From Welwitschia mirabilis (Eukaryota): 38,525 nt of DNA. The notes beneath the pieces are model-generated. The model was given only the letters and a program-made list of their open reading frames with translations, made no database searches and was not told the origin of the DNA. Shown piece by piece: positions 6,779 through 32,768 of this stretch (positions are counted from its first letter, which is position 1; the number at the start of each line of letters is the position of its first letter). The DNA is taken from NCBI GenBank assembly GCA_051453625.1, contig JBOZIK010000001.1, positions 42,395,355 to 42,433,879 on the forward strand, given 5' to 3'. Made by a program: the position numbers and the translations under genes.

Positions 6779-6780
6779 TT

Positions 6781-7034: not shown

Positions 7035-10000
7035 ATGGGCAAGGGCAAAGTTCCCCAGTTTGAAAGTGATGCATTTGAGGTTGAGAAAAGGAGAATGAAG
7101 ATATACCTCAAATCCAAGGGAATTTGGAATTATATACAAGTGGATTTTACCTTTGCAAAGTCTTAGGATGATACCAAATACTATGATACATGTAGGAAAA
7201 AAGATTGTAAGGCTATGAAAATTATTCATTTATGCATGCCTGATAATAAGCTCAAAAATTTAGAAAATTCAAATCCACATATAGACCATGAAGAGGGATA
7301 GATGAGTTTACTAAGGCCATGAAAATGTAAGGGCCATTATGTTTCAAAACCTTAGCTTTCAATTGGCAGTGAAAATGTAGATGCATACATTTATAAGGTT
7401 AAAGACATAGTTAAAAAGATGTAAGATTTAGAATATGAATTTAAAAATAATGATGTTGCCCTTAAAATGTTAGGAATTGTTATCAAAACATTTAAGCCCA
7501 TAGCCATCACCCTCCATAATATCTTATACTTAAGAATAACTTCTTTATAAGAATTATCTAGTAGGCTTATCTAATATGAGATCATCCACAAGGAAAAGGA
7601 GGAGGAAAATGTGACTACTTTAAAAACATTTTACCATGATAGCACTAGAGGAGGTTATAAAGAAAGAGAAAAATACAATGAAATAGGAAGAGGTAGAAAC
7701 CAAGGTATAGGTCTATGAAGAAAACCAAAAATAATTCAACATAGTGAAATAAGTAATTTTAATTTTAAGAATGTTCCATTACTTAACAACTGAAAAGAAA
7801 CTAGGGAATGCCACTATTTCCATAAAAGAGGTCATCTTATTAAAAAATATAGAAACAAGAAATGGAGTGATACAAACAAAGCCAACATAGCAAAAAAAAC
7901 TAAATCTTCTAAGTGCCTAGGTTAGAAGAGAAAAGTGGATTCAAACCAAAGAAAGAAGTTAAGGTAAGAGTATTTGTGGCTAAAACATAATTAGAGTTAA
8001 TCTCATCTGTCAGCATATTCATCTATTAATACATTAATAGTGGCTGTTTAAAGCATACTACCTATGAAAAGTACTTGTTTTAAGAAATTTTTGAAGAAGA
8101 TCATGTAGTAAGATTTAAAGAAGGAGCATCATGAGATATTAAGGGTCATGATACCTTTTTTGTTAACAACCACAAAGGTGAAAATTTTATCATTCATGAT
8201 ATTTTCTATATTCCTAGTGCCTATTACAATCTTATTAGTTTAGGATAATTAATTGAAAATGGTTTTAAGGCTAAGTTTGAAGATAAAAATTGCATCTTAT
8301 CTAAAGGAAAACAAATGCTATAAGTGCTTAAAATAGGAAACAACTTGTACCAAATCACATTTGGAAAATCTTTAGTTTTTAGCGAAGCTGATTTTTGAAC
8401 ATGACATAGAAAAATAGGACACATCTTAAACAAACACATAAGGGTAATATTTTAATACAAAATTATTAGGGGATTGTCCAATTTGTAAATTGAATTAACT
8501 AATACATGCAAGAAATGCATTTAAGGCAAGAAAACAAGGGTTTTATTTTTCAAAAGTCTCAGTCAAATAATCTTAGAAATTGTTATTTGTGGATTTAGAT
8601 ATATAGGGATCCTTTAACCCTTTAAGTTTGAGTGGTTGTAAGTATTTTATTACATTTACTAATGATTTTTCAAGATTATGTCATGTCCATTTATTAAAAT
8701 ATAGATATCAAACTTTACAATCGTTAAGTTTTTCAAAGATAGACTAAAATAAAATTAGGTGTTAAGATTAAGTACTTAAGAGTTGATAGAGAAGGTGAGG
8801 ACTTATCTAATGATTTTTAATCTCATTTTCAAAATAATGATATTACTCATCAATTGACAACAATTTATACTCCATAACAACATGGAGTTACAAAAATAAA
8901 GAATCATTCTTTAGCGAGTATATCAAAAACCATGATACTTTAAACAATTATTGATAAGTCCTTTTGGATTGAAGTGCTTAATACTGTAACCTACCTCCAA
9001 AATCACATGGTTATGAGAAATCATGATCATTTCACCTTATATGAATAATGGTATGATATTAAATCTAATTTGTTACATTTACAAATTTTTGGATCTAATT
9101 TCTTTGTCAAGAATACAAAACCTCATTAAGACAAATTGGAATCTAGATCTAGGTCATGCATATTTATTGGATATCCTAGCCAAATTAAAGCATATAGATG
9201 TCATAATCCTAATTCAAAAAATGTTTTGAAATGCATTGATATTAAAATCATACATTTGGAATTATTAAATCCTATTTCTGCTTTTAATAATGATTATAAT
9301 CATATTTCTTATAATAATAAATATAGTGAGTCTAAAGATGATGATGATGATGATGATGATGGTTCACTTAAATAAATTCTAGTTGATGGCACAAAGTCTA
9401 GTGAAAATCAAGTGTCCATTCATGTACACAATCAAGGTGAAAATGAATCTAAAAATCTATGTAAATTATTGGATTAAAATATAACTAATAAATCAAAACA
9501 TAAGAGGATAACTCCTATCATGATCAATCCAACATCATAAATCCTAGTGATGCTCCAATAAGGATAATAAGACAAACAATATTGGTGTAATCATAGAAGA
9601 TAAGGTACGCAATGACATTTTGAAAGATTATTTAGTATTAGATTGTAAATATTTAAATCAAGATCTAGTTCACTTCAAGGAAGATATAAAATACCTAGAT
9701 TAGGTCAAGGTAATGGAGGAAGAAATTCCTAAATTGAAATAAACAATACATGAATTCCTATTCCTAGGCCATAAAAAAAAAATTTCATTAGTATCAAGTG
9801 GATTTATAAAACTAAATATAATTCTAATAATATAGTTAACAAATATAAGGCCTATTTTGTTGCTCTTGATTATGTACAAGAAGTAGGCATAGATTATGAA
9901 TAAACATATGCACTTGATGCATCTCTTGAATTAGTTAGATATTTTCTTGTATACGCTTCAAAATATTTCATGACTGTTTGATAGATGAATGTCAAATATT

Positions 10001-10045
10001 CCTTCTTGAATGGGGTCTTTGAAGAAGAAGTGTATATCTCATAAC
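7035..10045 (+). pseudogene. Copia gag-pol pseudogene (gag, zinc knuckle, protease, integrase, RT N-half)
   Basis: Begins MGKGKVPQFESDAFEVEKRRMKIYLKSKGIWNY. Decayed zinc knuckle ECHYFHKRGH (~7806), protease YINSGCLKH (~8030), HRKIGH (~8405) and integrase KYFITFTNDFSR (~8640). SRSCIFIGYP in ORF 9136. RT KWIYKTK...KYKA...GIDYE*TYA...FLNGVFEEEVYIS. Many stops and frameshifts. Confidence 0.93.
9337..9360 (+). repeat. (GAT)8 microsatellite in the Copia INT-RT linker
   Basis: Read directly; gives the poly-Asp run in ORF 9136..9375. Confidence 0.95.
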
Positions 10046-11543
10046 ATTACAAGCATAAATTTAATGGTTTGACATATTATTTAGATTATGTTTTAGATCT
10101 CATTTCAAAAGTTTTATGATGAACTTAACCATTTTTAAATGTTAAGGATAAAAGAAAGGTATAACTTGAATAAAATCATATGTTCATGTGGATAAAATTA
10201 CTATAGTAAATTACTGTAGTAAATTTATTATAGAAGTTGAAGCTACTATAGTAGTCAAAGTTACTATAGAACAGACACTATAGTAGGTTACTTTAGCATC
10301 ATCCACATGATCATTTAGATGACACTGTAGGACAACAATGCTATAGCATAGTTATTGTAGCAGTTACTATAGTAAAAATTTAGTTTTCAGCTCATCATCC
10401 AAATAATACCAAAAGAATGACAATCATTACAAAAACATAAAAAAGACATAAATTTTAATAATTGGACTCATCACCACCTATGATTATCTGGATGACACTT
10501 AGGATTAGATTCCTCTTTAATAAAATTCAATAAGGATAGCATGATGTAACATAAGAGATAATTATTAGTAGTTAAAGGTGCCATCCACATTATCATCTAG
10601 ACAACATTATATGATGACTAATAGGAAAAGAAGAAACAAAAATATGTCATTGTCATCCACTCCATAATTTGGATGACATTTAGAATGACATCAAGAATAT
10701 TCAAAATTAACAGGTGCCAAGAATTAAGAAGTATTTGCTAGCATCGTTTATTTCATTATCTAAACAACACTAGTTGAACATTAGTTAGTTATTTGTTAAA
10801 AAAATAATCTTTATGTAACAAATGTTGGTTTGGATATACCCTTCCACATCACATTCCTTAGTAACCTCAACCACTAATATAAAACTATAAATAATCTTTT
10901 AGATATCCTATTTATCATCTTAACAAACTTTTAATCTTTTGACAATTAAAGATTAATTAGTAAAAGATCCATCTTGATTTTGAAAAGGGTTTCACTTGGT
11001 ATTGGGCTTGGATTCCTCCATTAAGGTGCTATTACTCATGAAAGGATGTAAGCATACTTTGTTTTTCAAGTGATTAATAAAGCACTTTTTGTTTGATTCT
11101 CTCTTTTCATATTCCTCAGTTTTCATGATACATTTTCTTTAGGATTCAAGTGATATTGATAGGAATATGTTATGATATCTAAGGTCTAATTTAGATGACA
11201 ATAAATCGGCGATTTGGTTAATATTTGCATTTAGGTTGTATTAATTTAATTGCATTACATTTTATTTCATTCAATTATCATCCATTATACTTATTGCAAT
11301 TACATTATTCTTAATTTATTTTTTCATTCATATAAATTAAAAATTAAAAACGTTTTTCTCATCTCTCTCAAATCAATTTTCTAATTCACTTTTTATAAGT
11401 CTTATCTAAAGTATGACATTTTGGGTTGACCCCACAATATAATGGTGTTTTTTGCAAAAGAAATATATATTTAATTTTTAGGTTATAAAGCAAAGATACA
11501 TTAATGAGATTTAGATTCTAAAGAATAAATAACCACCACATCA
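10045..11543 (+). repeat. 5' LTR of element A
   Basis: Collinear with 30852-32333 from CATTACAAG/TGTTATAAG onward. Carries TACT(A/G)TAG(C/T)A and CATC(C/T)AGATG repeat arrays and ends CATCA. Confidence 0.9.
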
Positions 11544-11546
11544 TTT

Positions 11547-11564
11547 TGGCGCCATTACTAGGAA
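11547..11564 (+). promoter_or_regulatory. PBS of element A (tRNA-Asp, Athila type)
   Basis: TGGCGCCATTACTAGGAA versus TGGCGCCGTTGCCGGGGA, 3 nt after the LTR end. Confidence 0.85.
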
Positions 11565-12289
11565 GGGCAATAAGTCTTAAAAGAGGATCCTATTTAATAT
11601 TATTATCCAAAAGAACATAATTATTCAAAAAAGAATTCATTAAAAGAAGTAAGCTTTGGTTAAAGTCAAGTTCTACATCAAAAAGAAAAGGTGAAATTAT
11701 TATTTAAATATATTCTTTCTTTTAATGTTGTATATTACTTTCAAGTTTTAGTTTATAAGCTTTGCTTGATTACTCTTCTTGAATTGTACATAGTCTATTT
11801 TTTAGAATCTTCTTTTTATGTAAATTAGATTTCTAATTAGTCTACTCTTTGAACCTTATAGTGATCTTAGAGACTACCAATTTAGGCCTACTCCTTGCAC
11901 TTAGTATGATCTTGGAGATTTTCATCTAAATCATTTGATCATCTTATTTATTTTTGGTGTACTAATACTTCATTAATAAGAGTGATCTACACCTTGCAAT
12001 TTGTGTGATCTAGGTGATTATATTACTTGAAATTCTAAGTAATTTATTCTTATTCTCTTTTCTAGATTGTTGATAAAAGAACTTCAAAGAAGATATTTGC
12101 TAAAAGAAGGAAAAAAAGCCTCTCCGTGAACTCATTGCTGAAAGGAAAAAATTACTTTTATTGGAAAAAGAACACAATTTCTATATTTCACTCACTTCCT
12201 TTTAATTGATACATAGGCATTCTAGTGAGTTTTATTCTTCTAGTAATTTGTACCTATTTATAGAAGATATTAATAATAGATTTAGCAAA

Positions 12290-12852
12290 ATGAAACATTC
12301 TTCTATGATAGAATATGAAGACAAGATAGATGGTAAAGAAGATTCTTTATCATAATCCCTGTATGAGTGTATGAAACAAAGTCAAGAAGGAGTGCAATAA
12401 AGTAAAATACTAAATAAAATTATAGAAAAATTAGTAGAACTTATTACTTAAGTTTATATTCATCAACATTTTCAATACTACTCCATCACATCTTCTACTT
12501 TTTATCTTGAAAACAAAGAAGAGAACATTGGAATTACTATACAAAGCGATATCAACTCTTGCTTAGATAATGATGATGATATAATAGAGATTTTGGAGGA
12601 ATTTTCCAACCTTATAGAGGATAGGCCAACTGAGAATGAAGAAGTTTCAACTCAACAAATAAATAAAAATGAGGATGAGGATGAAAATGAAATAGAAATT
12701 TGAGAGTACTTCTTCAACCTCAACTCACTTTTGAAAATGATGAAGGAAACTTTAAAGATATTCTAACACATAAGGAAGATAATGAAATTAGCTTTTCTAA
12801 TAAATTTAATAATGAATCAAATTAGTTAGAGCATGATGAGGATGATATTCAA
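12290..12852 (+). pseudogene. Decayed acidic ORF of element A (5' part; continues ~25946-26200 after element B)
   Basis: MKHSSMIEYEDK...ENKEENIGITIQSD...NEDEDENE...EHDEDDIQ. The acidic reading resumes after B (SNNNDANEEENKEVF). ITIQS resembles the Athila gag-PR linker motif VTLRSG. Confidence 0.5.
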
Positions 12853-13921
12853 TGTTATGCTACCAACTTGCATATATTTGATAAGGTATTTTAAGTAGTT
12901 TATAGGATATTAAACAGGTTTATTCTAGAATTCCATAATAATGAAGAGTTGAGATGAAAGATACAAAAACACATAATTTCCATGATATTTCACAGAATTT
13001 GGAGTAATTCCCAATACTTTCTATCTCAAGATAAATTTATTACAAACATTAAGGCTGATGCATTGGATGAACACTTGTAAAATTCTATTATCCACCTCAT
13101 CATCCAAATGATAGTACGAATGACATAATAGATAAAGCCAATGAGGATATTTACTATGACCAATTTGGTAGATAACATGGATTATTTATAAGGTGGCATC
13201 ATTCCCTATATCATCCAGATGATCATCAGGATAATACCTATTATAATGTCCAACTCAACATTCACCTAACTCTTGCCATTTGTTTGTATGTATTTTAGTG
13301 TAGTCATTAGGATTGTACCCACACCTGTCTATCTATCTTGTTATTGTGTGTTGTTTGTTAATAAGTATCAATTCCATCCTTGACTCTATCTTGTCCTCAA
13401 TTGTACTAGAAATTTTTATGGTAGGAGATTGAAGGGCCAAAGATCCATTCTTAGTAGTTGTAGAGAGATGTCCTCATTGGTGTTGGGCTATGCTTCCTCC
13501 ATTGAGGCGTGGTTAATTTGTAACACAGATGTGGTTTGATTAATACAAAGGCTTCTTTTCCAATTCTTATGCTTGTTTGTTCTTATCTCTTATAGTTTAT
13601 GTTGATTATGTTGCTTCTGATTTAGTGACAGTTTCTTAAGTGCTATAGGCTATGAGGGAAACATTTGTTAAGGTTGAGCATTGTTTTTATTCCTAAATTA
13701 TATTTGCATAAATGTGTTACATCATACTTTCTATTGATAAGATACATAATGTTTCTTGCAAAAATCAATTCTTTTTCTCTAGCTTGGGCCTTCAACAGAT
13801 TATGACATTTGAGGTAACTCTCATCTATATTAGTGTATTGTGTTATGCAAGATATCTATTTTATTTGTGAAGGACATGATCTTCTTGAGCTTAATCATTA
13901 TCAAAAATACATATTGCAACA
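12853..13921 (+). repeat. 5' LTR of element B
   Basis: TGTTATGCTACC...GCAACA; aligns end to end with 24842-25940. Confidence 0.95.
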
Positions 13922-13924
13922 TCC

Positions 13925-13942
13925 TACCACCATTGTTGAAAA
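13925..13942 (+). promoter_or_regulatory. Strongly decayed PBS of element B (tRNA-Asp)
   Basis: TACCACCATTGTTGAAAA versus TGGCGCCGTTGCCGGGGA at the expected position; differences are almost all G>A or C>T. Confidence 0.6.
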
Positions 13943-16900
13943 AGGTTGATTAGAGTGTAAGAGTTGTCATTACTTAAGTAAGTATTTGAATATCAGTTCG
14001 AACATTTTCCTATAGCAGTGTTATACTTTTAGCTATAGTAGCATAGTTTTTCTTTTTGTAAGTTTAAATTTTTCTATTTTACAATAAAAGATTTGTCATC
14101 TACATCATCATCCAGACAATGTATAGCAATGAGAGCCTCTATGCCTTAAGTTCTTAGCTCTTAGTTTCTTTTAAAACTTTTTGGTTTTTTCTTATTATCC
14201 CTTCTATTTTTCAGATAACTTAGGGGAATGATAGTATGCTTTCTGAGTTTTTTATGTCTATCATTTTTGCATTTCTATTTTTTATTTGTTTTTGGTTTTT
14301 TATGTTTTTTGTATTTCTGTTATCTAGACTATCATCTAGACAATTACAAGGATGATACTCTATGCATTAAAAAACTAAGCATGTATGGTAAAATATGGTA
14401 AGAAATAAAGATACTAGAGAGAGTGACTATTTATAGAGGAAAATATCTAAGAAGATTTGATTAACCTCAAAACTAATTTAAGTATGCATAGCAAAGTTAT
14501 GCTAAGTTTAAAAATTTTAGAAATTTCTACTTTTATTTCTTTAGAGTTTGATTTTATGAGTAAAAATTTTTCAGAAGACTATGTTGATGATAGTTTTCAA
14601 TTTCTAAACACGTCTAGCTTATTACAAAATTAAAACAAACCACTTTGCCTAATCCACCACTTGTCATTGAAACCTATACAACTACACCTATTAAGCCTAA
14701 TGCCAATTTCATCCTTAAATATCGGATTGCTAATAAAAAATGTGAAATCTAAAACCCGCTTTGATTTACCTCTTGATAATAATGTCAAACTTAGAAATCT
14801 AAATGCTTGTTTCATTTTTAGTGGAGAACTTGATGAAGACCCTTTATAATACATTGTCAATATTGAACGATTAGTGCTTATTTTACAAAATGGTAAGACA
14901 ACAATAAGTAATAGGACTTACATGTCATTTTCCCCATTACTTTAAAAGGTAAGGCTAAATGTTAATTAAGAATGATTCTTTATAAAAGTTTAAAATCATG
15001 GAGTTAAGTTGAAGAAACCTTTATTAAAAGATTCATAAGTGAAACCATCATTAGAGAACATAAGAAAGAAATAACCAACTCCAAACAAATACCTAATAAA
15101 GATTATGCTTCTACCTATGAGAGATTTTTTTTTTTTTTACTTTATATTTGAACCCTGTAAATGCTTTTTCTCAAGAAGAATTAGTAGACTACTTTTATAG
15201 TGAACTCAATAGTTAAATAAAGTAACTAATTGATTCCTTATGTGAAGAAAATTTGTTAAACCTTATCTTAGAAAATGCTTAAAAAGTGTTTGAATAGTTG
15301 GTAGAAGTGACTCAAACTTAGCCTAAATCTTATATAGAGGAAACTAAATTATAGATCACACCATTAAAGATCTTAATAAGGTTAAACAAGAAAAAAAAGT
15401 AATAAGAACTGAAAATGAACCAACAAATATTATTAAGGATTTTATCTCAACTCTAGAAAAATATACTAAAATGATTTTAGATGCAAAGATGATAGCCAAA
15501 AAGAGTGTAGTTGTAGCTCCTACTTATAATTTATATAAAGATAGCTATCATATTACAAAACAATATCCTTTACTTCCAACTTACAAAGAAAGAATCTTTG
15601 AAGAAGTGTGTGCCTTCAATTAAAGGTCCTTAAACTTTGACCAAAACCAAAATCAAAGTTAAATACAAAACCACAATAAATTTTAACCTAGGATGAGTGG
15701 AAAATCTAACTTTAGAAATTTTTCAAACAAATCATCCTAGCTTCCAACCATTTAAAAAGAGATTTAAGAAGCTAAATTTTCAATCAAACAACTTAAATAA
15801 TCAAGTAAGCTCATTCAACTCACAAAATCAAGGTGATACTCTTAGGAATTATATTAATGAATTAAGAAAAATACAAGAAACAATAAATCCCAACATCAAA
15901 AATCTTGTGAGTATTTTATAACAAACCATGTTTGCGACCCAAATATCACAAGGATCACGTATCACTCAACCTTTACCAAATCCAAATAAAGTTAAGAAAG
16001 ATTGTAAGGTGGTGATAAGAAGTGAAAATAGATAATACTTCCCATTCATGAGTAAGAGGACATAGAAATTTTAGAAAATCATTCTTCCTCTTCTTCATTA
16101 AGCGTTAATAAGGAAACTTTTTCACATAGAAAACCTACCATCCCTTAGCTTGATAGATTGGACATATATTATTATTGATTATTATTTAAAATTCTTAATG
16201 CAAAATTTAAGTATTAATTTATTTTTTTGAAAACTTTTATAAGAGAATCCTAAGTACTCTAAGTTGTGAAAAGACTTGATTAGGAGAAAACAAAAATGAA
16301 CCATTCCTAGTAAAGTCATTCTAGCCTAATCCATTAACAACTTAGTTTTAAAAAAATGTTCAAAGTTTAAGGATCTAGAGGCAGAAACTATTAATATCAC
16401 TTTAGAAGGAAAATAGAAGGATTAATAAAGCCTTGATTGATATTGGAGCTAGTGTAAAAATTATTCCCTAATACATTTGTCAAATACTTGAGTTGAAACA
16501 TAGAATAGAGCCTGTAAGGATTATTTTATAATTAGATGATACTTTTAATAAGAAATCATTAGGTGTTATTAATAATTTAATCATTTAGATTGAAGAAAAA
16601 ATTGTGATAGAAGTTGAACATAACTATAGTTATCCTTTACTTCTAGGTAGATCTTTTTGTGTAATAATCCATTGTATCATAGATATGAGAACCGGTTTGA
16701 TAGAGTGTCATTTAGGAAATAAGTAGTTTTTAGGAAGAGTGTTTGATGTGATTGAAAAATATTTTGGAAGTGATTTGAGTGTATAAAAAGAAATAAAGTC
16801 AACTTCATTTTTACAAAACATCCACTTAAAGAGAGATGATCAATTCTTTATGAACTAATTTTGTTTGATGATTAACTAGAAGTAGATAATTTGTATGTTT

Positions 16901-17604
16901 TTGATGAAGATCAACTTGATTTTAACCATTTGAAAATTGATTATTTTGATTTACAAAGTGGATAAACTGAGTCTATCAACTATGTAGAAGTCCAAGATCT
17001 GAGCAGAACTGAGATTTCATATTTTTAAGGTAGTCATCCACTATTGACATCTAGACAATAGTTTGAGATGATAGTAAATTTTCTTAAAAATTTAACAAAA
17101 AATAAAAATATAAATTTAAATCTAAATATGAAATCTTTATCTAATGGACTAAAATATATTTTTTTGAATAATGATCTATACAAAACTTTGATAATTAACA
17201 AAAATCATTTCCCTCAACAAAAACCAAATATAATCTCTCTTTTGCAATCTAAGATAAATGAGTTTACTTAGTTGTATAATGATTTGATATCCATTTATAT
17301 CTCAGTTGTCCAACATAAAATCTACCTTGAGGATAATACAAAACCTATTATGCAACCCCAGCATAGACTTACTCTATCTCTTAAATAAGTTATTAAAGAT
17401 GAAATCATAAAATTAATGGATCCTAGAATCATTTATACTATAGCTGATAGTAAGTGGATTAGTCCTTAAACAATAGTGCCTAATAAAGATGGAAAATGAA
17501 TGATGTACATTGACCTTAGAAAACTAAATGAAGTAATCAAAAAAGATCACTGTCCTTTGCCTTTTCTTAATCAGATACTTGATAGGATTCAGGGACATGA
17601 ATTT

Positions 17605-18707
17605 TATTGTTTTCTTGATGAATATAGTAATTACAATTAGGTTTGTATTATTAGTGAGGACTAAGCCAAAACTACTTTCAGTTCATCTTTTAGTAATTTT
17701 GCTTTTTAACACATGCCTTTTGAACTTTATAATGCTTCTAGTACTTTTTAGCATGCGATGATGGGCATTTTCTCTGATATGCTAGAGGATTCGATTGAAA
17801 TTTTTTTATGGATGACTTTTCTATTTATGCTAAAACCTTTAAATAAATGTTATAATTATTAGAGAAAGTCCTTAACTTTTACATTTCTAATGGCCAACCT
17901 TTGGATAGGAAAAGAGTTTATTTTTAGTTTAAAGTGAAATTATTTTAGGTCATCATATTTTGAAAGAGGAGATTAGAATGGACTTTAAAAAAGTTGGTAT
18001 TATTCAAAACCTAAATCACCTTATAAATGTAAAATCGGTTAGATCTTTTCTTAGTCATTATGGTTTTAATTGTTGATTTATTCATTATTATGTAAATATT
18101 TATAAACCACTTTACTTATTACTATTGAAAGAAGCTAAATTTAAATGGAATGAATCCTATTTTTTCTTGATGAATATAGTAATTACAATCAGGTTTGTAT
18201 CACTAGTGAGGACTAAGCCAAAACTACCTTTACTTTATCTTTTAGTAATTTTTCTTTTTAACACATGCCTTTTGGACTTTGTAATACTTCTACTACTTTT
18301 TAACATGCTATAATGGGTATTTTCTCTGATATGCTAGAGGATTTGATTGAAATTTTTAGGGATGAATTTTCTATTTATGCTAAAACCTTTGAACAAATTT
18401 TAGAATGATTAGAGAAAGTCCTTAACTTTTACATTTTTAGTGGCCTACATTTGAATAGGAAAAAGAGTTTATTTTTAGTTGAAAGTGGAATTATTTTAAG
18501 TTATTATATTTTGAAAGAGGATATTAGAATGAACTCTAAAAAGTTGTTATTATTCAAAACTTGAATCACCTTATAAATGTAAAATAGGTTAGAACTTTTC
18601 TTAGTTATTATGGTTTTTATTATTGATTTATTCATTATTATGCAAATACTTATAAATCCCTTTTCTTGTTACTAGCAAAAGAAGCTAAATTTAAATGGAA
18701 TGAATCT
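17605..18707 (+). repeat. Tandem duplication (~550 bp x2) of the RT core
   Basis: 17605-18157 and 18158-18707 are collinear. ORFs 17579 and 18125 are near-identical off-frame translations. Confidence 0.95.
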
Positions 18708-19167: not shown

Positions 19168-19233
19168 GATGATTATTTTCCAAATAAGAAACTTTTTATT
19201 AATGATGATTATTTTCCAGATAAGAAACTTTTT
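19168..19233 (+). repeat. 36 bp in-frame tandem duplication
   Basis: GATGATTATTTTCCA(A/G)ATAAGAAACTTTTT at 19168 and 19204 (DDYFPNKKLFIN DDYFPDKKLFA). Confidence 0.9.
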
Positions 19234-20844: not shown

Positions 20845-21326
20845 AAAAAAAAAAAAAAAAAAAAAAAAAGAGAGAGAATGAAAAAGAAAAACAAAAAGAA
20901 AAAAAGAAGAAGAAAAGAAAAATAAATAATGACCATGTTCTATTATATTTGATGCTTAAAGAAATGTCCATGATCAAGATGATGTTCTATCACACTAGGG
21001 TAAGTTTTTTTGAGAGGAACCTTTGGTAGTGTTAGTAGTTTTAGAAGCTCAAATAGAGGGTTAGTTGGCCATGATTCATAAGTTCTTACTTCTTTGACTA
21101 CGGTTGCATCAAAAAAAAAAAGAAAAAAAAAGAAAATAAAAAGAAATAATGACCATATTCTATTATATTTTTTGCTTAAAGAAACCTCCATGATCAAGAT
21201 GATGTTCTATCACACTAGGGTAAATTTTTCTAAGAGGAACCTTTGGTAGTATTAGTAGTTGTCAGAACTCCTATGGAGGGTTAGTTGGCCATGATTTATA
21301 AGTTCTTACTTCTTTGACTATGTTTG
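20845..21326 (+). repeat. Tandem duplication (period ~220 bp), each unit headed by an A-rich tract
   Basis: 20924-21106 aligns with 21144-21326. A-rich runs at 20845-20923 and 21111-21143. Confidence 0.9.
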
Positions 21327-22949
21327 AACTCACCTCATCATGGAAGACTTTGTAATAAACTTTGAGACTATGGGATCAGTGGCATTCTTGGTTTCATCAA
21401 AGATATTACTTATTTTCTAGACTCTTAGTATTCTTACATGGCTATTTTAATTTTGAGGATTCAAGTGTGTTTATAAGATGTGAATGGGTGAGTTCATTTC
21501 TAAGTAGCTTTTGATCTTGTCATTCATTGTTCTGAGCACTTGAGTTTTGGTATCACCATAAATCATTGACTTTTTGAATAGAACTTTATGGAGTTTATAC
21601 ATTTTATCATGCATTTTTACTCAAGTGGCTTTATGATGTCTTTCTTGGGAGTTTGCTATTGGAATTTAGAATAGGTAAGCAATCTTATACTTGTTCCTCG
21701 TGTGCATTTTCGTTTTTCTTTTCTTTGGTATTTCAGTTTGTTATTTTAAATTCATTCTCATAGTTTCCTATTATTACCTAGGACCTTATCATTTAATACT
21801 TTTCTTACTATTCATTCATGTTCATTCATTTTTACTTAGCATTTGAATTAATTAGAACATCTTTTTATCTTTTTATCTCAACATTCTTATGAGACTCCTT
21901 ATCCTTTTGAACGTTTTGTGATTTCTCTTATTTTACTTTTTAGTTTAAGCACATTTACTTAGTTTTTATTATTAAGTTTTAGCTAGTTAGTTTGTTCTCT
22001 TCAACCATAGTTTTCTTTTGTTATAAGTTTTTACATTTTATTTCATTTTTTCTTTCTTGTTTTTCTATTTTCCCTAAGTATTCTAATAAAACATGATACT
22101 TTTTATTTAAGCCTAATTTTTTTAGTTGACATTTTTATTTTTTAAAAAATTTTTCATGTCCTATCATCTACCTAGTCATGTGAATGACACTAGACAGATG
22201 ACTATCTGATTTTTCTCTAAGAGTCATTCTGTGGTCCAAACCCTTTTTATTCATTGTTCTTTACTTTCTAATCATTTCTGTCCATTTTTTATGAGTCAGT
22301 GATCCCTTTGGACCATACTAGTATCTTGGATATTGTTCCAATCAATTTCATGTATAGATTTTAGAGATTTGATCAAATTTGTCAAAATGAGATATGTTTT
22401 TCTCTCCCTCTTAGTTTTCATTTTTTCTTTCTCTTGTTTCTTAGCCTTCCAACACATAGTCTTCATGTATGTTTATTCATTTATTGCACTTTTTGATTTT
22501 AAACTTACAGATTTGCATTTCACTGCGTATTTTGTAAGTTATGATTAATTGTGTATTTTATGAGGAAATTTGAAATTTTCATCTTTCACACTCATTTTCT
22601 TGCAGATCTTAGATTAAAACATAGTGGTACTTTAGACAAAATTGATTACTTTGACATGTTCTATGATTTTACTGATTAGATTTTTCATTTGAGTACTTTG
22701 AATTTTTACCATATATGGGGCCCACTTTAAAAACAGCTTTTGCACTTTTCAAGCATTATGCATTTTTCTTCTCATTTATAAGCAATCCAAGATGTATTGA
22801 AATTTTTAAATGGGTAGGACATATTTTCATTAGTTTTTTAATTTTTATCAATCTTGGGGATCGTTATTACACATTCATGTGACATATTTGACATATTTAC
22901 CATTTCTACATGATATTTTTTTGTGTATTTTCTATTGAGTAGACCTAAT

Positions 22950-24330
22950 ATGCATAGATCTAAGTGCACTAAGGTTGAGGTCAAAGTCATAAAGTAGGAA
23001 GCTAGCACTTTAATGCTACTAGAGGTCTAGCGTGTGGAGTTAGTACATCTACCACCTTGACACAGACGATCTTTGATGACTTAGATAACTAGTATCTATA
23101 TTGAGAGATACTTTGGAGATTTCATGAGCTAGATAAAGCCTAAAGTAGATTAGAGAATCATAAATCCCTAGCTTAGATGGATTACAGATGTACGTGATTC
23201 ATACTATGTCATAGAGATAAGTGAGTTTTACAACACCATGCATATAGAGTGTTGGCTAGATTCTTGTAGTCAGCTGGTTGATATGATTATTGCTTACATT
23301 CAAAACCACAAGATTAAAATCCTCCCATTCCACATTGTAGTAGTTAAAGATATGAGTGAGCTTGAAAGTATTCATAGTCATTTAGTCTAAGGGACTGAGG
23401 AACGTTATGCATATGGCACTGCACTAGATATACCAATAGATTTGATAATAGATAAGCAGGGAGTTCTTGTCACATAGCAGANNNNNNNNNNNNNNNNNNN
23501 NNNNNNNNNNNNNNNNNNNNNNNNNNNNNNNNNNNNNNNNNNNNNNNNNNNNNNNNNNNNNNNNNNNNNNNNNNNNNNNNNCCTTACATATAGATTTTTT
23601 ATAGAGCACTAATTCATAACATCAGCTTATTATTTTATGATAGTTATATCATAATCACACATCTTCAGATTCTAGTAGCTTTTAGATGAGGAGAGAAGAT
23701 GGACCTAGTGACATTTATTTGGAGGAGACTTAGGTCCATTGTTAAGGTATGATAAGTACAAACTCTAGGTTACCCATGCCTCCTCTTAACTCTTTTCATA
23801 GGATTTTCGATATCATAGCCCATGGGTAAGTAGCATTTATTTCATATCTATGCTTTACCTAACTATTTATAGGACATGGACATATAGGCACCAGAAGAGG
23901 TAGAATGACCTCAAGTATAGAGACTTATGGTTGGAACTATAGTTAAGCAGATACAGGCCCTCCTAGTAGAGACCATTGAGACCATCAGAGGATTTTAAAT
24001 CATGATATCCTGACCTTAGACTAGGGGATCTAGGCTCTCAATCAGAGGATGTAGATATTAGAGCAGAGGATCCTGACTATTGAGAGGAGAGTTTAGAACT
24101 CTAAGGACCAGATTGTTAATGTGCACCGATGCATTATCTCTATTCAATAGAGTATGAAAATAAATATTTTAGAGGTTGTACATGTCTAGGATGATGAAAT
24201 TATTCATTCCATTTATACATCTTTAGATCTCCATTTCTTTCCTGATCCTAAGCATCCTCCCTCATCGAACCCCTATACTTGGGCCAACTGCCCAGATAGA
24301 ATTCATCATGCAATGGTAAGGGGAGTGATT
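22950..24330 (+). pseudogene. Remnant of the Athila extra 3' ORF (env-like/ORF2)
   Basis: Lies between INT and the 3' LTR. IEISEFYNTM (23211) resembles the VREFYAN motif. ALNQRM*ILEQRILTIERRV (~24034) looks like a coiled coil. Confidence 0.6.
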
Positions 24331-24828
24331 TTGTGATATTTTTTATCTCCTCCTCTATGTATTTTTGTATTAAAAATCATTATTTTTATAGACATCATTT
24401 TTGAGTTCGCCATGGTATATCTTATTATCTATTTTTCATGATTATCTTCATTTGTCACATGTTATGATGAGGATTGATTTTATTTGCATGATCTTTTATT
24501 CATTACAGTATAATTTAGTGAGGTAATTTTAATTATAAACTAATTATTTAACTAAAATGTTTTTGTCATGGGATTTTATTTTTTGAGACCCTTTTTTCGA
24601 GCCTCTCATCCCCTAATTGTCTAGATGATGATTCAAATAATGGTATGACTAGTCTTTAAATTAGATAAAATGTTCAGTTTTTTAATTTCTTATGATTCTA
24701 TTTATAGCTCTAAAATTCTTGAAATTTTTTTGAGATAATTTCTTTTATACCTTAGCTATTTTTATTATTAAATAAGTTGGCTCACAATCATGATTTACCA
24801 CCTAGTTTAGCCAGGTACTGATAATACT

Positions 24829-24841
24829 AAGTGGAGGGCTA
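24829..24841 (+). promoter_or_regulatory. Polypurine tract of element B
   Basis: AAGTGGAGGGCTA immediately before the 3' LTR. Confidence 0.7.
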
Positions 24842-25940
24842 TATTGCACTACTAACTTAGATATATTTAATAGGGCATTTTGAGTAGTTTTATAGGATAT
24901 TAGACATGTTTATGCTAGAATTTCATGATAATGGAGAGATGAGATGAAACATATAAAAACACACAATCTCCATAACATTTTACAACATTTGGAATAGTTT
25001 CCAATACTTCCTATCTTAAGATAAATTCCTTGTAGATATTGAGGCTAATGCATTAGATGAACACTTGTAAAAGCCTATCGTCCACCTCGTCATCCCAATG
25101 ATAGTATAAATGATACAATAGATGAAACCAACAAGGATTCTTACTGTGATGAATTTGGCAAATGATATGGATTATTTATGAGGTGGTATCATCTCTATAT
25201 CATCCAGATGATCTTCAAATGACATTTGTTATAACATCCCACTGAACATTAACCTAATCCCTATTATTTATTTGTATGTCTTTTAGCATAGCTATTAGTG
25301 TTGTGCACATTCCTATCTATCTATCTTGTTGTTATATGTTTGTTATTAATAAGTATTAAAATTTTGACTTGACTTTATCTTGTCTTTGTTTGTATCAGAA
25401 ATTCTCATGATTGGAGATTAAAGCACTAGATATTCATTCTTGGTAGTTATAGAGAGATGTCTTCCTTGGTGTTGGGCTATGATTCCTCCATTGAGGTGTG
25501 GTTGCTTTGTAACATAGATGTGGTTCAATGAAAACAAAGAATTCTTTTCCAATTCCTATAATTATTTGCTCTTATCCCTCATAGTTTATTTTGCTTCTAA
25601 TTTAGTGACAGTTTCTTTAGTAATATAGGTTAGAAGAAAAACATTTATCCAGGTTGAGAATTATTAGATTAGGTGCATTATTCCTTTTTATTCCTAGATT
25701 AAGTTTTCATAAGTATATTGCATTGTACTTTACTGTATTACAATTTATTTTGTTCATAAGATACATAGTGTTTCTTGTAGAAATTAATCCTCTTTCTCTA
25801 GCCTAGGCCTTTAATGAATTACGACATTTGGGTCAACTTCTATTTATATTAGTATGGTGTGTTGTGTAAGATATCTATTTTATTTGTGAATTATAGGATC
25901 TTCTTGAGCTTAATTGTTTACATAAATATGCACCACAACA
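24842..25940 (+). repeat. 3' LTR of element B
   Basis: TATTGCACTACT...CAACA followed by the TSD TTCAA. Confidence 0.95.
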
Positions 25941-26788
25941 TTCAACAAAAGTAATAACAATGATGCCAATGAAGAGGAGAATAAAGAAGTATTCATGGAG
26001 GACCACCAAAGTTTAATGAATAATAAAATTAGCATGACCATTGAACTAACCCCAATTGAAGAGCCTACTCCTACAAAAAATGATCTTCTAATTCTTCCTC
26101 TTACACTTCTATGTAAAACTTAAAACACCATTTCCTCTTTAAGTCAACATTGCCTTGTGATGATTTTACTTGAAAAAAACATGACTTGGGATTACTTTAA
26201 ATTCTATTTTAGAGAAAACCTTATCTTCTTAGGTTTAGGCCATGCATTGAATTGAGTCTTAAAGAAGTTTTTAGTTATGTTAACCATGAATTAATCAATT
26301 CTCAAAAATAATTCTATGATATTTATAAGATCCATTTATTGTTATTGGGTAATATCAATATTGTTTTTAATGAAAATTATGCTTATTCCTTTTTGCACTA
26401 ATTTGATAAGAGAGTATTTTTCAAAGAATTGTATTAATTTTTCATCTCTTACATATCTTCTAAAATTTATGCTATCATGATCATATCATGTTTGATTTCA
26501 TATTACTAATTGATACTTATTAAGGATGAATTTGTACCTTCATATTTAGTTAATTTGTTTTAAAATGATTTGATCCTTATTTCACTGAAAAGATAAATTT
26601 TGATGGCTATGCTAAAATAACCTAACTTTTGAAATAAGAATCAACATAAAGTAATGGAATCATGTCTTATTGAAGCAATTGATTTTGTAAAATTATGTCG
26701 ATTACTTACCTTTTATGAATTATGTTCAAATGGTTTCTCTTCTCTGATATGTAGTATTTTAATTTTATTTTATTTCTTCATCATTTAG

Positions 26789-27027
26789 TGTTGAAGAGTA
26801 TATTCATTTATTTAATAAATAGCAAAGTGGATATGCCCATGTACTTTGTGTTTATTATAATTATTAACTTTTTTTTAAATTTATATCCATCTTTCATAGA
26901 TCTAACATTCTATTCTTAGTTGTACTATAATATTTATGTTTGAGAATTTAATAAAATTAATCAAAGCTTAAATTTATTATTAAATCAATCACATCTCCTC
27001 ATCTATCACTATGCATTTGCATCAATA
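26789..27027 (+). repeat. 5' LTR (or surviving part) of element C
   Basis: TGTTGAAGAG...TCAATA, collinear with 29228-29467. Confidence 0.85.
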
Positions 27028-27029
27028 AT

Positions 27030-27041
27030 TAGTATCAGAGT
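27030..27041 (+). promoter_or_regulatory. PBS of element C (tRNA-iMet)
   Basis: TAGTATCAGAGT versus TGGTATCAGAGC, 2 nt after the LTR. Confidence 0.85.
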
Positions 27042-28147
27042 GAATCTTAAGAGGAATTTGAAAGATGAAGAATCAGACAAAACTCAGCTATGTAACTATT
27101 AGATGCTTGAACACAACTAAAGACATCATCCTAAGAGCTGAGAGTATGTCTAGAATAATTCGACATTGAACAAAGAATTTTGTAAATAAGAGAAGTATCA
27201 CACCTATTCCTCTATGCAACTAAAACAGTAGTGTTTTCCACTAAAATACTAATAGCATTACCATCTGAATCATTTCCAATCTCCACCATGCTCATCATCT
27301 ACATTTAATACCCTACTATTTTGATTGCTCTTGCCCTCTATCTCTATGTCCACTAAGTCTTCCATAAAAATAAAAATAGCAGGTCCAATAACATGGTCAC
27401 TACAAATAGCCACATAAAAAAGGGGTATGATAATTTAGAGAAGAACTTTCTATAAAAGGTAAAAGACCTTTTGATCTATTATTCCTTANNNNNNNNNNTA
27501 CGAGATATATTTCAAGAGCCCTCTGCCTTTACACAAAACATACTATCTTATACTAAACAACTACTTGATATGTAACAAGATCTCTTATCTCTATTGCATG
27601 ATTCATAGATCTATTCTTTATTAAAGAGGCTACATCTATGTTATTGGTAAAAGATAGTTCAAAATTATCTTTAGTAGTTAGTTAATACATAACATTTTAA
27701 TGCCAAAAAGATGAAGGATGCATAGAAGTGGCACCAAAAAAAGGTCAAGTTAGCAGTTAAAGAAGGTAGAGAAAATATGTTCTAGAGCATCAACAAAATT
27801 ATGCATCTTGTATGAAATTCAACATGTAGTAGAATATTATGGATTATTATTAAGCTCAACTCAGAGCTACCCAATAATCAAGCCCATTAACATTTAAAAT
27901 CCTTAAAAAATTAAAAAAAACCTTTGTCATTCCCATTTTTTCTTAATTTTTTTAACCTTTGTTTCTAAAACTTATTGTATTATAACAAATTTTATATTTT
28001 ATTCCCTTGTATAAGAAAAATAATAAAACCATTTATTTTTAGAGTGATGAGGAAGAAGAGAAAGGGCATACATTACCCATAACATATAATCTAAGGCTTT
28101 ATAATTTTTAAAAAAAGGAGGGTTAAAATTGATAGGGATAAATTGAA

Positions 28148-28880
28148 ATGGGCAAAAATATAATAAAATTTAATTAAAAAAAACTTTCATGTTTAGTAGA
28201 TTAAAATGAAATTATTTCTAATTAATAAAGGTCTATAAAAGGTATTTAGTGGTAAATATCTTAAGCCATCAGATACCAGGAAGATTAATGATTGGGAATA
28301 TATAGATCAAGAAGCATTATTATTAATTAGTCTGAGTCTTGAAGATGATTATCTTAGTTACATTAATTTAAGTAAAACATTAAAAGAGATATGGGATGAA
28401 ATAAATAAGCTATTTAAATAAAGTGAAGATGAAGCTAAGTAAGATCTAAAACATCAACTTTATAGCTTAAAATTTGTAGAATCTAGAGACATCGATTAAT
28501 ACATCAATTTTTTAAAGTTATTTTTGACATAACTCAAAATAGTGAATTTAAAGATTGAAGATGATGATGCAAAAGCCATATTACTAAGTAGTTTATGCTT
28601 TGAAGAAGATTTCATATTCTTTAAAAAACACAATTTCAACTCTCCTTGGTGAAGCAAGGAAAATGGAGAAATATGAACAAAACAATGCTTTGGTCTCAAA
28701 TTAATAAAGATTTAGAAAACAACCAAGTAAAGAAAGAACTTATAGGTATTATAAGAAAAGGAAACATACAATAGTAAATTCCTTTGATCAAGCACATGCT
28801 CTTGTTAATGGAAAGATAAAATCAACAACTACGATTATAGAAGAAAATGATGACATAAAGGATGAAAATTCATCTGAGTA
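28148..28880 (+). pseudogene. Copia-type gag (UBN2/Retrotran_gag_2-like) pseudogene
   Basis: IKMKLFLINKGL*KVFSG...DWEYIDQEALLLISLSLEDDYLSYI...TLKEIWDEINKLF...LKIEDDDAKAILLSSL. Confidence 0.85.
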
Positions 28881-29227
28881 AGAAGAAGTTAAAGTAGGAG
28901 GATTATAAACCAAAGTTCATGTATTTTAATAGATCATAGTTAGTATTTTGGCATGCCATCATAAGTGTTAGTATTTTTTGATATGATATTGCCAACATTT
29001 TAATGGCTATTAATAGTTTTTGTTCTAATATTTTTAGTGGATATCAATAATCTTTATTCCAATATTTCAATGCTATTATGCATCATCATGAATCTTACTA
29101 ATTTAGTATCATATTTAAGCTAGCATGTTAGCTTAGTACTTGCTTACTATGATTCAAGTTTTATGCCTAGGCTTTTGTAAGCTCTAGTCTTAACATGCAG
29201 TGAGTGAAGGGACCTAGGAGAGCTAAG

Positions 29228-29467
29228 GTTTGAAGAGTATGTTCAGTTATTTAATAAATAGCATAGTGAGTATGCCCATGTGCTTTATGTTTATTATAAC
29301 TATTAACTATTTTTTTAAATTCAGATCCATCCTTCATGGATCAAATCTTCTATTATCAATTATACTATATTATATAATTTTGAGAAATTAAGAAAAATGA
29401 TCAATGCTTGAATTTCTTGTTAGATCAATCGCTACTCCCAATCTATCACTGCATATCTGCATGAACA
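29228..29467 (+). repeat. 3' LTR of element C (may extend left to ~28903)
   Basis: Aligns with 26789-27027 and ends GAACA. A better PPT-like tract (AAAGTAGGAGGA) lies at ~28891-28902. Confidence 0.8.
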
Positions 29468-30450
29468 GGTATGTCTAAGCATTTTATGCTTTTGTAATTT
29501 ATGAATGATGAATTGTATTTTAACCAATTTAGAAGTATTCAAAAACCTATGAACTTTTATTCCAAGATATAAAATGTGCTTAATTGAATTGATCATGTTA
29601 TATGCTTATCTCTTTATTAATTTTATTATGATGCTATAAATTATTAATTTCTTGATGTATGTACAAGTTACTTTCCATAAAAGAAAAGAAAATGAGAAGG
29701 GAAAAAAAGAAATAAAAGAATATTCAAAATATGATAATCATATAAATATGAAATATAAAAGCACTTTTGATGATCATGCCTAATCTATCTTGAGGATTAC
29801 TGCACTAGGGACAAAGTTGCCTAATGACTTTATCCTACCTAATAGGTCCTATTACTTGCTATAAAATCAAGGTTAGTAGTTTTAATAAAATCACTATCTA
29901 ATGGAAGGTATTCAAGGTAGAAGAAGTTACACCTCAAATCGTACTATAATCATCACAACATCTGTAGTATTGTTATTTTGTATCTATCTTTCTCTATTGA
30001 TGATTGGTAATCATGGCTATAATAGTTTAATTAGTATGTTATCATGTTTATCTTATTTAAGTAGAAATATGATGTTTTGCTAATTTTAAATCATGTTTTT
30101 TATTTGAAAAGAAGACACCTTTGGTAAGTGATCAACTTTAATTAGGATACATGCTATTGCAAAGTGTTAGTTTTTATTCCTTAAGTCAAAAATTTCAAAG
30201 TTATTTATGTATATTATATTACTTTAGAGGGCCATAACATTATGATGACTTTATTTCCTATAATTATTCATTAAATAACCTTTACCTTACTATATCATCA
30301 TTGATTACTTTTTTTCACTCCTAAACATTTTTGTATAATTACCCTTTACACATTTCATCCTATGTCTTACATTTAGTAGGAGGTTATGTTTTCATGTAAA
30401 AGTTCTCTAAATTTAAGACAAATATTTTTTTCTTAAGGGAATGAAATCCT

Positions 30451-30804
30451 TAAGGATTAGAGTCATTCATGAATAAATTTATGATAAAAATATGTTTTTA
30501 TAAAAACTTATAATTTTTTTTTTAAAATTTAATAAGTATTCATATGGCTTATGAGATGGACTCAATGCTTATGTGACATCATTTTGAAAAACTTTTGTCT
30601 CCTTACTAATTTGGCTTGTCATCATGATAAGGATTAGAGTCATTCATGAATAAATTTATGATAAAAATACCTTTTTATGAAAATTTAAAAATTGTTTTTC
30701 TAAATTCAATGAATATTCAAATGGCTTATGAGATGAACTCAATGCTTCTGTAACATAATTTTAAAATATTTTTATATCCATGCTAATTTGGCTTGTCTTT
30801 ATGA
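30451..30804 (+). repeat. 177 bp tandem duplication in the 3' UTR of element A
   Basis: Units start TAAGGATTAGAGTCATTCATGAATAAATTTATG at 30451 and 30628. Confidence 0.92.
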
Positions 30805-30820
30805 TCATTTGCTTGCTTTA

Positions 30821-30851
30821 TTAGGGACTAATAAATGCTACATGAGGGCTA
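30821..30851 (+). promoter_or_regulatory. PPT region of element A
   Basis: TTAGGGACTAATAAATGCTACATGAGGGCTA directly before the 3' LTR; same GAGGGCTA ending as in B. Confidence 0.65.
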
Positions 30852-32333
30852 TGTTATAAGGCCAAATTGGCTAATTTGACATATCATTTAGAATGTATTT
30901 TAGATCTTATTTCACAGGCTTTATGATTAATTTGACCACTTTTGGATGTTAAGGATGAAAGACATGAAACTAAGAATAATTTAGATAAACTCAAATGTGC
31001 ATCTAAATGAAGTTATTATGATAAATCCCTATAGAAAATTTACTACAGCAGTAAAAGTTATTGTGGTAAAGGCACTATAAGAAGTTATGTAGCATTATTT
31101 ACATGGTCATCTAGATGATACTATAGGATGCTTACACTATAGCATAGTTACTATAGTAATCATTATACAAAATTGTTAGGGTCATCCACCCTTGTCATTC
31201 TAACAGCACTAGAAGGATGATAGTCATTACAAAAATATCAGAAAGATATAACTTTTAATAATTGGATCTGTCATCCACCTATGATCATCTAAATGATACT
31301 CAGGATGACATTTCTTTTTAATAAAATTTAACAAGGATTACATGGTATGAGATGGAATATAATTCTTGATAGTTATAGGTGTGATCCACCATATTATCTA
31401 GATGACATCAAAGGATGATTAGTAGGAAAATAAGAAATAGAAAGATGACATTTTCATCCACTACATCGTCTAGATGACATCTAAGATGACATCAAGAATA
31501 TTTAAAATTAACAAGTGTTAAGAATTAAGGGATAGCTTTTAGCATCATCCATCTCATTTTCTAGATAATACCAGGTGGATAATAATTAGTTATTTGTTAA
31601 AAAATTAATCTTCCTATAATAATATTTTGTTTAAATATGCCCTTCCATATCACACCCCTTAGAAATCTTAATTGCTAACTTAAAACTATAAATATCCTTT
31701 TAGAAATCTTATTTCTTATATTTGATGCACTTTCAATCTTGTGAAAATTGAAAGTTAATTGGTGAAATATTAATTTGATTTTGAGAATTGTTTCACTTTG
31801 TTTTGGGCTGAGATTTATCCATTTAGGTGTTGTTACTCATGAAACGACATAAGCATACTTTATTTTTTAAGTGATGAATAAATCATGTTTCATTTAATTT
31901 TCTCTATTTGTATTACTTATTTTTCATGATATATTTTCTTCAAGATTCATGTTACATTGATAGGAATATGTTATGATTTCTAAGGGACAATCTAGATAAT
32001 AATACATTAGTAGTTTAATTAATCAAATTACATTAAGATTAGATTCATTTAATATAGTTATTTTACATTATATTTCATTATATCATTTTCCTCATTGCAT
32101 TATTATTTCATTCTTTTTGATGATTTAAAAACATAATCAATTCTATCCTTCTCTTTTTAATTCTTTCTTTCTCATTAGAATAAGATATTTCAATTCACTT
32201 TTCTCAAAGTTTACAAATATAAATCAAATCTCATCACTATACTAGAAGTGTTGTATTGCTTAAATTATGCTTTATAATATTATAATACTAACTTTCATGT
32301 CATTTATCAACATTATACTTTGAAACCATATCA
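30852..32333 (+). repeat. 3' LTR of element A
   Basis: TGTTATAAG...TATCA. Collinear with 10045-11543, but the last ~130-250 bp align poorly. Confidence 0.88.
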
Positions 32334-32336
32334 TTT

Positions 32337-32351
32337 TGGCACCACTACTGC
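32337..32351 (+). promoter_or_regulatory. Ectopic second PBS downstream of the 3' LTR of A
   Basis: ATCA-TTT-TGGCACCACTACTGC mirrors ATCA-TTT-TGGCGCCATTACTAG at 11540-11561. Confidence 0.75.
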
Positions 32352-32354
32352 CAA

Positions 32355-32768
32355 AAATATAAGCCCATCTTGTTACTTTTGGTTATGTGTATAAAGTAGG
32401 CATAGATTATGAAGAAACATATGCACGTGTTTCATGCCTTGAATTAGTTATATATTTTCTTACATATGCTTCCAAATATTACATGGTTGTTTAATAGACG
32501 AATGTTAAATATGCCTTCTTGAATGGAACTTTTAAAAAAGAGATGTACATCTTACAACCCAAATGTTTTGTAAAATATGATATTAAAAGTCATGTTTACT
32601 TATTGAAAGAGAATTTGTATGGTTTTAAACAAGTCCCAAGGGCATATTTTTCAAGGTTAAATTCCTTTACAAAATCATGGTTATAATAAATGTCATTTTA
32701 AAAATACCTTGTATAAGAAATTCATCAAAGACCATTGAATTTTTATCTTAATTTATGTTAATGATATG
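32355..32768 (+). pseudogene. Continuation of the Copia E1 RT (first ~204 bp duplicate 9841-10045)
   Basis: KYK...GIDYEETYA...AFLNGTFKKEMYILQPKCF...VYLLKENLYGFKQVPRA...LIYVNDM. Confidence 0.92.

Follow-up and report, generated by a model that had tools for sequence, protein, structure and literature searches.

Organisation of the locus

The window analysed here, a stretch of 38,525 nt of the Welwitschia mirabilis genome (assembly GCA_051453625.1, contig JBOZIK010000001.1, positions 42,395,355-42,433,879, forward strand), contains a decayed Ty1/copia retrotransposon that is interrupted within its reverse transcriptase (RT) region by a 22.3-kb long terminal repeat (LTR) element. This element, which we call A (10046-32333), directly follows the copia break at 10045 and is itself split by two further insertions, a Ty3/gypsy element (N) and a small copia-type element (C2). 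Beyond its right LTR lies a second copy of its spacer and primer-binding site (PBS), and the copia target is present twice, once on each side of A, over 205 bp. A preliminary description, made by inspection of the sequence, had taken A for an Athila-type element and the arrangement for a possible fossil of a one-ended integration. The features on which the argument depends are listed below; P0001 denotes the full-length copia polyprotein that was retrieved with the left pol, and PPT the polypurine tract.

7095-10045, plus strand: Copia-L, a decayed Ty1/copia gag-pol broken in the RT (Pfam on translations with stops set to X; tblastn with P0001)
Within Copia-L, plus strand (Pfam): gag at about 7095-7269, protease barrel at 8030-8267, integrase C-terminal SH3 domain at 9058-9249, RVT_2 at 9763-10041
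9841-10045, plus strand: left copy of the 205-bp RT segment (self-BLASTN, MAFFT)
10046-11543, plus strand: left (5') LTR of A, its first two bases decayed (CA or A, against TG in the right LTR)
11544-11564, plus strand: spacer TTT and 18-nt PBS of A, TGGCGCCATTACTAGGAA
11565-12852, plus strand: internal DNA of A, part 1, with no Pfam hit, ending in TTCAA, the left target duplication of N
25941-26791, plus strand: internal DNA of A, part 2, beginning with the right TTCAA of N
29468-30851, plus strand: internal DNA of A, part 3, with a 177-bp tandem pair (30451-30805) and ending in the PPT-like GAGGGCTA (30844-30851)
30852-32333, plus strand: right (3') LTR of A
32334-32354, plus strand: extension past the 3' LTR of A, TTT and PBS copy, 14 nt of it certain (32337-32350)
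32355-32558, plus strand: right copy of the 205-bp RT segment (self-BLASTN, MAFFT)
32559-32768, plus strand: Copia-R beyond the insertion point, with protein homology to 32668, followed by a reverse N-like LTR

The two ends of element A

On its left side the LTR abuts copia directly: copia homology ends at 10044/10045 and LTR homology begins at 10045/10046, with no extra bases from the PPT side. Since the left TG has decayed to CA or A, the precision of this junction is known only within 1 nt. On the right side the LTR is followed by TTT and TGGCACCACTACTG, then by CCAA (32351-32354), which represents either PBS positions 15-18 or else filler or target DNA, and then by copia from 32355 onwards. 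The extension is the same TTT and PBS as that found after the left LTR, retained over 14-18 nt, which agrees with the preliminary description; when the two were compared over 17 nt, 14 positions were identical and the other three were transitions. On the plus strand of the 38.5 kb, the PBS motif TGGCRCCRYTRYYR occurs in exact form only at 11547 and 32337. No homology to the interior of A was found after the right PBS, where copia sequence immediately adjoins, and no matching 5-mer is present at the LTR edges of A, so there is no 5-bp target duplication. The PBS of A, like that of N, presumably matches tRNA-Asp when transitions are allowed. The right border thus comprises the 3' LTR, a spacer and a copy of A's PBS no longer than 18 nt, with DNA foreign to the element next to it.

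The assignment of the right LTR as the 3' LTR derives from the internal DNA of A, which ends in GAGGGCTA immediately before it, and from the occurrence of the same motif in front of the 3' LTR of N. The PPT previously noticed at this position consists only of this short motif, but the 3' status that it was taken to indicate is upheld by the comparison with N. The two LTRs of A align with each other in self-BLASTN between 10068-11271 and 30875-32079; their U5 parts align poorly, with indels and 53% identity over 245 aligned columns, and the last 30 nt or so align again.

The family to which A belongs is less clear than had been proposed. The 3.5 kb of DNA that are its own gave no Pfam hit in a scan of the plus strand, and no match to ATHILA ORF-1 (open reading frame 1) at E<=0.01 was detected in the plus frames of 6001-26001. 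Membership in Athila/Calypso would call for a Ty3/gypsy gag-pol together with an env-like or ATHILA reading frame, and the RVT_1, RNase H and integrase region found inside A belongs to the nested element N. The Athila-type label could not be verified; judged by its lack of coding content, A is a non-autonomous or gutted element and at best a non-autonomous relative. In the Athila/Calypso lineage the PBS, according to PMC1142308, is complementary to the 3' 18 nt of tRNA-Asp and lies a few bp after the LTR.

The duplicated copia segment

The target carries gag_2, protease barrel, integrase and RVT_2 domains in copia order. Self-BLASTN aligned 9841-10045 with 32355-32558 at 81.0% identity (205 columns, E 6e-49), and a MAFFT alignment of the pair comprised 204 aligned columns, 28 transitions, 10 transversions and one gap column, the same numbers as in the earlier count made by hand (28 transitions, 10 transversions, one gap, ~81% identity). 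The RVT_2 profile of Pfam is matched from position 8 to 99 by 9763-10041 on the left and from position 35 to 139 by 32360-32675 on the right. With P0001 as the tblastn query, residues 267-910 mapped to 7919-10038 and residues 809-910 to 9733-10038 on the left side, and residues 843-949 to 32348-32668 on the right. Since both the RVT_2 and the P0001 coordinates overlap, the copia RT breaks off at 10045 and resumes some 68 codons further upstream, which bears out the interruption and the ~205-bp setback reported before. The repeat is direct, in register with the RT frame, and stands in place of the canonical short target duplication. Self-comparison of the window yielded no copia LTR pair and no copia target duplication that would join Copia-L to Copia-R, the visible part of Copia-R ending at the reverse LTR at 32769 and the window closing in scaffold gaps, and no further RT copy of the same family was found within the 38.5 kb.

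Both RT copies carry two adjacent stop codons at the same codons, and in both the catalytic D that precedes VK has been replaced by N; in the 68-codon overlap the left copy has four stops and the right copy three, two of which fall at the shared adjacent codons. The TAG stop and the D-to-N change in QMDVK that had been pointed out previously are thus indeed common to both copies, but they say nothing about whether the copies are sisters, and we rejected them as evidence of that kind. According to the pair statistics, each copy has lost about one quarter of its C/G since the split, so that approximately four parallel hits are expected in 205 bp and the shared defects are uninformative; the accompanying caution that the stop may have arisen twice was well placed.

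A proposed single insertion with one unprocessed cDNA end

We tentatively favour, with a probability of roughly 0.45, a single aberrant insertion in which the right cDNA end remained unprocessed and was joined by the host with a long target duplication, the left (U3) end having probably been joined by integrase. Element A would have arrived as a linear cDNA whose right end was abnormal, in a copia element that was there before it. The tRNA primer, we infer, was not taken off the minus strand in time, and plus-strand synthesis would consequently have run beyond U5, through the spacer and into the primer, of which it would have copied 18 nt at most. The resulting terminus, LTR-TTT-PBS, would have been a poor substrate for integrase. 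The left end would have been joined at copia position 10045, probably by integrase, and host repair would have joined the right end to the other target strand, 205 bp upstream, with fill-in yielding the 205-bp target duplication in place of the usual 5 bp. Later insertions would have brought N and C2 into A and another LTR element into the right copia piece, and the whole nest would have decayed by cytosine deamination.

The strongest argument for this sequence of events is the point at which the extension stops. It takes in 14-18 nt of PBS, no more than the 18 nt of tRNA that can be copied, and an unprocessed cDNA end explains this much better than the breakpoint of a random deletion would; the chance of such a breakpoint falling at the PBS end is about 0.5% within the 3.5 kb of internal DNA. 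As far as anatomy goes, the one-ended integration proposed in the preliminary description is well matched by the PBS extension, the left LTR, flush to within 1 nt, the missing 5-bp repeat and the 205-bp duplication; the divergence test discussed below does not confirm it.

Similar junctions have been described in several systems. In HIV-1 (human immunodeficiency virus 1) and MLV (murine leukaemia virus), some proviruses retain the unprocessed dinucleotide (GT) and 2-15 nt of the PBS at the 3' junction together with a normal 5' junction (Sakurai et al. 2009, PMC2797772). As in A, the 3' LTR is followed there by nucleotides that integrase normally removes and by PBS sequence, with a non-canonical target repeat; unlike A, these cases come from cell culture in repair-deficient human cells and have repeats of 0-3 bp (PMC2797772), whereas A is a germ-line-fixed plant LTR retrotransposon in which the spacer measures 3 nt, the PBS copy 14-18 nt and the duplication 205 bp. 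When one end is joined by integrase and the other by the host, as studied in RSV (Rous sarcoma virus) and HIV-1, the most frequent result is a duplication of host DNA that is hundreds to thousands of bp long (Varadarajan et al. 2016, PMC5041404). The likeness to A lies in a long duplication that replaces the 5-bp repeat and in the combination of one normal end, which in A would be the left one, with one aberrant end; the viral events had been induced through mutated viral ends, integrase inhibitors or integrase mutants, and their aberrant end is often truncated (PMC5041404), whereas the aberrant end of A is over-long, containing a copy of the primer.

In the yeast element Tf1, about half of the cDNA still has its PBS as a tail and is able to insert independently of integrase (Li et al. 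2022, PMC11042837). There, too, the PBS copy is retained at the cDNA's 3' end, beside the 3' LTR, and the process operates in wild-type, natural elements; the Tf1 events target PBS homology or resident elements, form tandems and lack long target duplications (PMC11042837), in contrast to A, whose copia target has no PBS homology. The three-LTR tandem arrays of plants also contain an LTR that has the PPT side to its left and is followed on the right by a PBS, but those arrays continue with another internal region and a third LTR, and their target duplication is short and canonical (PMC11899658), unlike A, in which copia comes straight after the PBS and the flank is duplicated over 205 bp. In the open-access literature searched, taken without supplements, no plant study came up that describes a 3' LTR-PBS junction together with a long target duplication.

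Divergence, reads and the evidence on the other side

If A and the 205-bp repeat arose in the same event, the two LTRs of A and the two copia segments should have diverged to a similar degree. The repeat pairs of the window gave the following values, where p is the proportion of differing sites, tv that of transversions and K2P the Kimura two-parameter distance.

LTR pair of A: p 0.241 +/- 0.012, tv 0.080, K2P 0.300, over 1184 well-aligned columns (p 0.285 over the full LTR)
LTR pair of N: p 0.206, tv 0.050, K2P 0.252
LTR pair of C2: p 0.183, K2P 0.212
205-bp pair: p 0.186 +/- 0.027, tv 0.049, K2P 0.221

The order of divergence agrees with the order of nesting, A > N > C2. For the right junction, read support was sought by comparing four public runs (X1, X2, X7 and X12, the last sampled at about 1 in 100) with 27499-34236. 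A 426-nt contig from X1, at a single-copy depth of 4.6, spans 32252-32666 with two differences and bridges LTR, PBS and copia. Among the longest pieces listed for X2 and X12 none lies over 32333-32360, which is uninformative either way.

Several observations weigh against a single insertion with an unprocessed end, and the first of them concerns age. The 205-bp pair is less diverged than the LTRs of A (0.186 against 0.241), the binomial probability of 38 or fewer differences in 204 columns at a rate of 0.241 being 0.038. Only about 1% of the 204-column windows of the A LTRs are as similar as the 205-bp pair and none has so few transversions; for the LTRs of N the corresponding figures are 26% and 53%. 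The K2P distance of the pair, 0.221, is closer to the values for N (0.252) and C2 (0.212), the nested elements of younger age. By these comparisons the 205-bp pair looks younger than A, which counts against a common origin with borderline significance (P about 0.01-0.06). At the junctions themselves, PBS positions 15-16 are CC in the right copy against GG in the left, and the terminus of the left LTR is decayed, so that processing by integrase cannot be read from it. On the side of the data, the bridging X1 contig is perhaps from the same sample as the assembly, the X7 contig covers only 32338-32666, beginning past the LTR end, X2 has no bridging piece among those listed (its listed piece begins at 32395), and five scaffold gaps interrupt element A.

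The comparison of ages that had been suggested as a check did not confirm a common origin: the pair is less diverged than the LTRs, at borderline significance. The gap could be due to misalignment of the LTRs near indels, to a faster decay of LTRs, or to conversion of one repeat by the other at an early stage.

Alternative explanations

Among the alternatives, the one that survives best, which we nevertheless regard as unlikely, is a history of several steps. In this scenario A either turned into a tandem with three LTRs or underwent recombination with another A, and a subsequent deletion or ectopic exchange fused the DNA just past the PBS of the middle LTR to another copia of the same family, by chance 205 bp upstream of the first break. 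Tandem arrays of LTR retrotransposons are common in plants, according to PMC11899658; the nest is dense and contains several tandem duplications, 177-560 bp in size, the window has no fewer than three pieces of copia type, the U5 parts of the two A LTRs align poorly (the 53% over 245 columns given above), and the age of the 205-bp pair does not match that of the A LTRs. However, a tandem followed by a deletion removes flanking DNA and cannot duplicate it. The left breakpoint would have to lie within about 4 nt of the end of the 18-nt PBS, and the right breakpoint in a copia of the same family and orientation, within about 200 bp of the homologous position, so that three or more rare events are required. 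Copia RT comes directly after the PBS, with no sequence internal to A in between, and the window contains no further A LTR. The low divergence of the pair harms this explanation at least as much as it harms the one we favour: Copia-L, at least, is older than A, so two independent copia copies should, on a uniform clock, differ by no less than the A LTRs do, yet they differ by less. The three-LTR tandem and the ectopic recombination between copia copies, both named as alternatives in the preliminary description, do not hold up well, as the duplication needs several extra coincident events.

Somewhat less probable again is that the same unprocessed cDNA was captured wholly by host repair, with no integrase acting at either end. 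Its point of entry would have been a stalled fork or a break with staggered ends in the copia RT, where its single-stranded PBS tail might, for instance, have annealed or been end-joined. Insertion via the PBS tail is described for Tf1 and for HIV-1 lacking integrase (PMC11042837); the left LTR of A may be short of its first base, and from the retained PBS it is clear that one end at least, the right, was not processed. Against this, the integrase-independent events treated there mostly lack target duplications and are often truncated or inserted into pre-existing elements (PMC11042837). The left end of A is full length within 1 nt and carries no PPT-side bases. Moreover, copia upstream of 9841 has no PBS-like homology.

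An artefact of assembly or scaffolding, which would have put left and right parts of separate loci together and created an unreal duplication, is very improbable. The assembly is a draft of short-read style, with ten N-base runs in the window, half of them within A, and only one contig among the pieces listed clearly bridges the right junction. Both junctions of A with copia nevertheless lie inside gap-free contigs (6021-19383 on the left, 27499-34236 on the right), and repeats at 72-81% identity are too diverged for an assembler to collapse or mis-join. The two TTCAA flanks of N lie on different contigs and the LTR pair of C2 straddles the last gap, so that the nest itself supports the scaffold across all five gaps. 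The stretch 31800-32900 is present in public runs of three studies, and the X1 contig covers the junction at single-copy depth. Finally, a later tandem duplication, LTR gene conversion extending into flanking DNA, break repair that copied the 5' LTR and template switching during replication were rejected, since on paper none of them gives a PBS together with a 205-bp repeat unless a template with the empty site or another complete A is supposed.

Nested and neighbouring elements

The other elements of the nest and the scaffold gaps are as follows.

12853-25940, plus strand: N, a Ty3/gypsy element with LTRs at 12853-13921 and 24842-25940 and a PBS-like TACCACCATTGTTGAAAA at 13925
26792-29467, plus strand: C2, a 2.7-kb gag-only element of copia type with 236-bp LTRs and a PBS-like TAGTATCAGAGT at 27030
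N-base runs inside A: 19384-19393, 20238-20278, 20615-20827, 23482-23581, 27489-27498
N-base runs outside A: 315-744, 6011-6020, 34237-34246, 35189-35288, 36353-37188

N encodes protease, RT, RNase H and integrase at about 16.4-20.3 kb on the plus strand (Pfam) and is flanked on both sides by TTCAA, a perfect 5-bp target duplication; its LTRs are ~79% identical. Its RT contains an internal tandem duplication of about 550 bp (17597-18161 and 18150-18711, 90% identity). C2, with a gag_2 domain at 28206-28595 (E 4e-19) and the flanks AGTGT and GGTAT, is probably a non-autonomous copia derivative. When the scan for TGGCRCCRYTRYYR was repeated with one mismatch allowed, for which 0.19 chance hits are expected, a third match appeared, the PBS-like TGGCATCATTGTTA at 25955-25968 on the minus strand, 10 nt past the right target duplication of N. 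We considered this motif as the PBS of an element in reverse orientation and rejected it, as no matching reverse LTR adjoins; a chance occurrence is plausible.

To the right of the duplication, Copia-R is cut by an N-like LTR in reverse orientation, which lies at 32769 to about 33957 and at 33799-34236 (~68% identity to the LTR of N). From 32769 onwards the depth in public runs, counted in words at >=95% likeness, rises to hundreds to thousands, which points to a young, abundant element as the one that cut Copia-R. Within 31800-32900, a proportion of 0.86-0.88 of the sampled words was found in runs labelled as two organisms (coded A and B), so that two closely related taxa or labels have this locus in common. 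On the minus strand at 38139-38508, the C-terminal RNase H part of another copia-type pol (P0001 residues 1122-1260) leaves the end of the window.

The window has a GC content of ~26%, and the observed/expected ratio of CpG is mostly 0.06-0.2, reaching 0.37-0.38 in two of the twenty 2-kb bins. Transitions predominate in all its repeat pairs, an excess that indicates long-term, methylation-driven deamination, and the DNA is old repeat sequence, heavily deaminated. Further tandem duplications lie at 20887-21326, 30451-30805 and 34092-34375, with units of 120-220 bp and 73-89% identity; local tandem duplication is seemingly frequent in this dense nest, where several examples of 177-560 bp occur.

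Significance

Aberrant integrations at one end have been studied in retroviruses under drugs, mutations and repair defects, where they cause large duplications, deletions and rearrangements. The process as such is already known from retroviruses and yeast elements, and under the reading we favour A is a single, ancient and decayed natural example of it; one decayed case alone is an anecdote, best treated as a search pattern rather than as proof. If the interpretation is correct, the "one bad end" pathway of retroviruses would also operate in plant LTR retrotransposons, in wild-type elements and over evolutionary time. The signature that A displays, a PPT, an LTR, a spacer and no more than 18 nt of PBS followed directly by flanking DNA, would then be usable to count such events across plant genomes and would gauge the segmental duplications or deletions that integrations of this kind have contributed.

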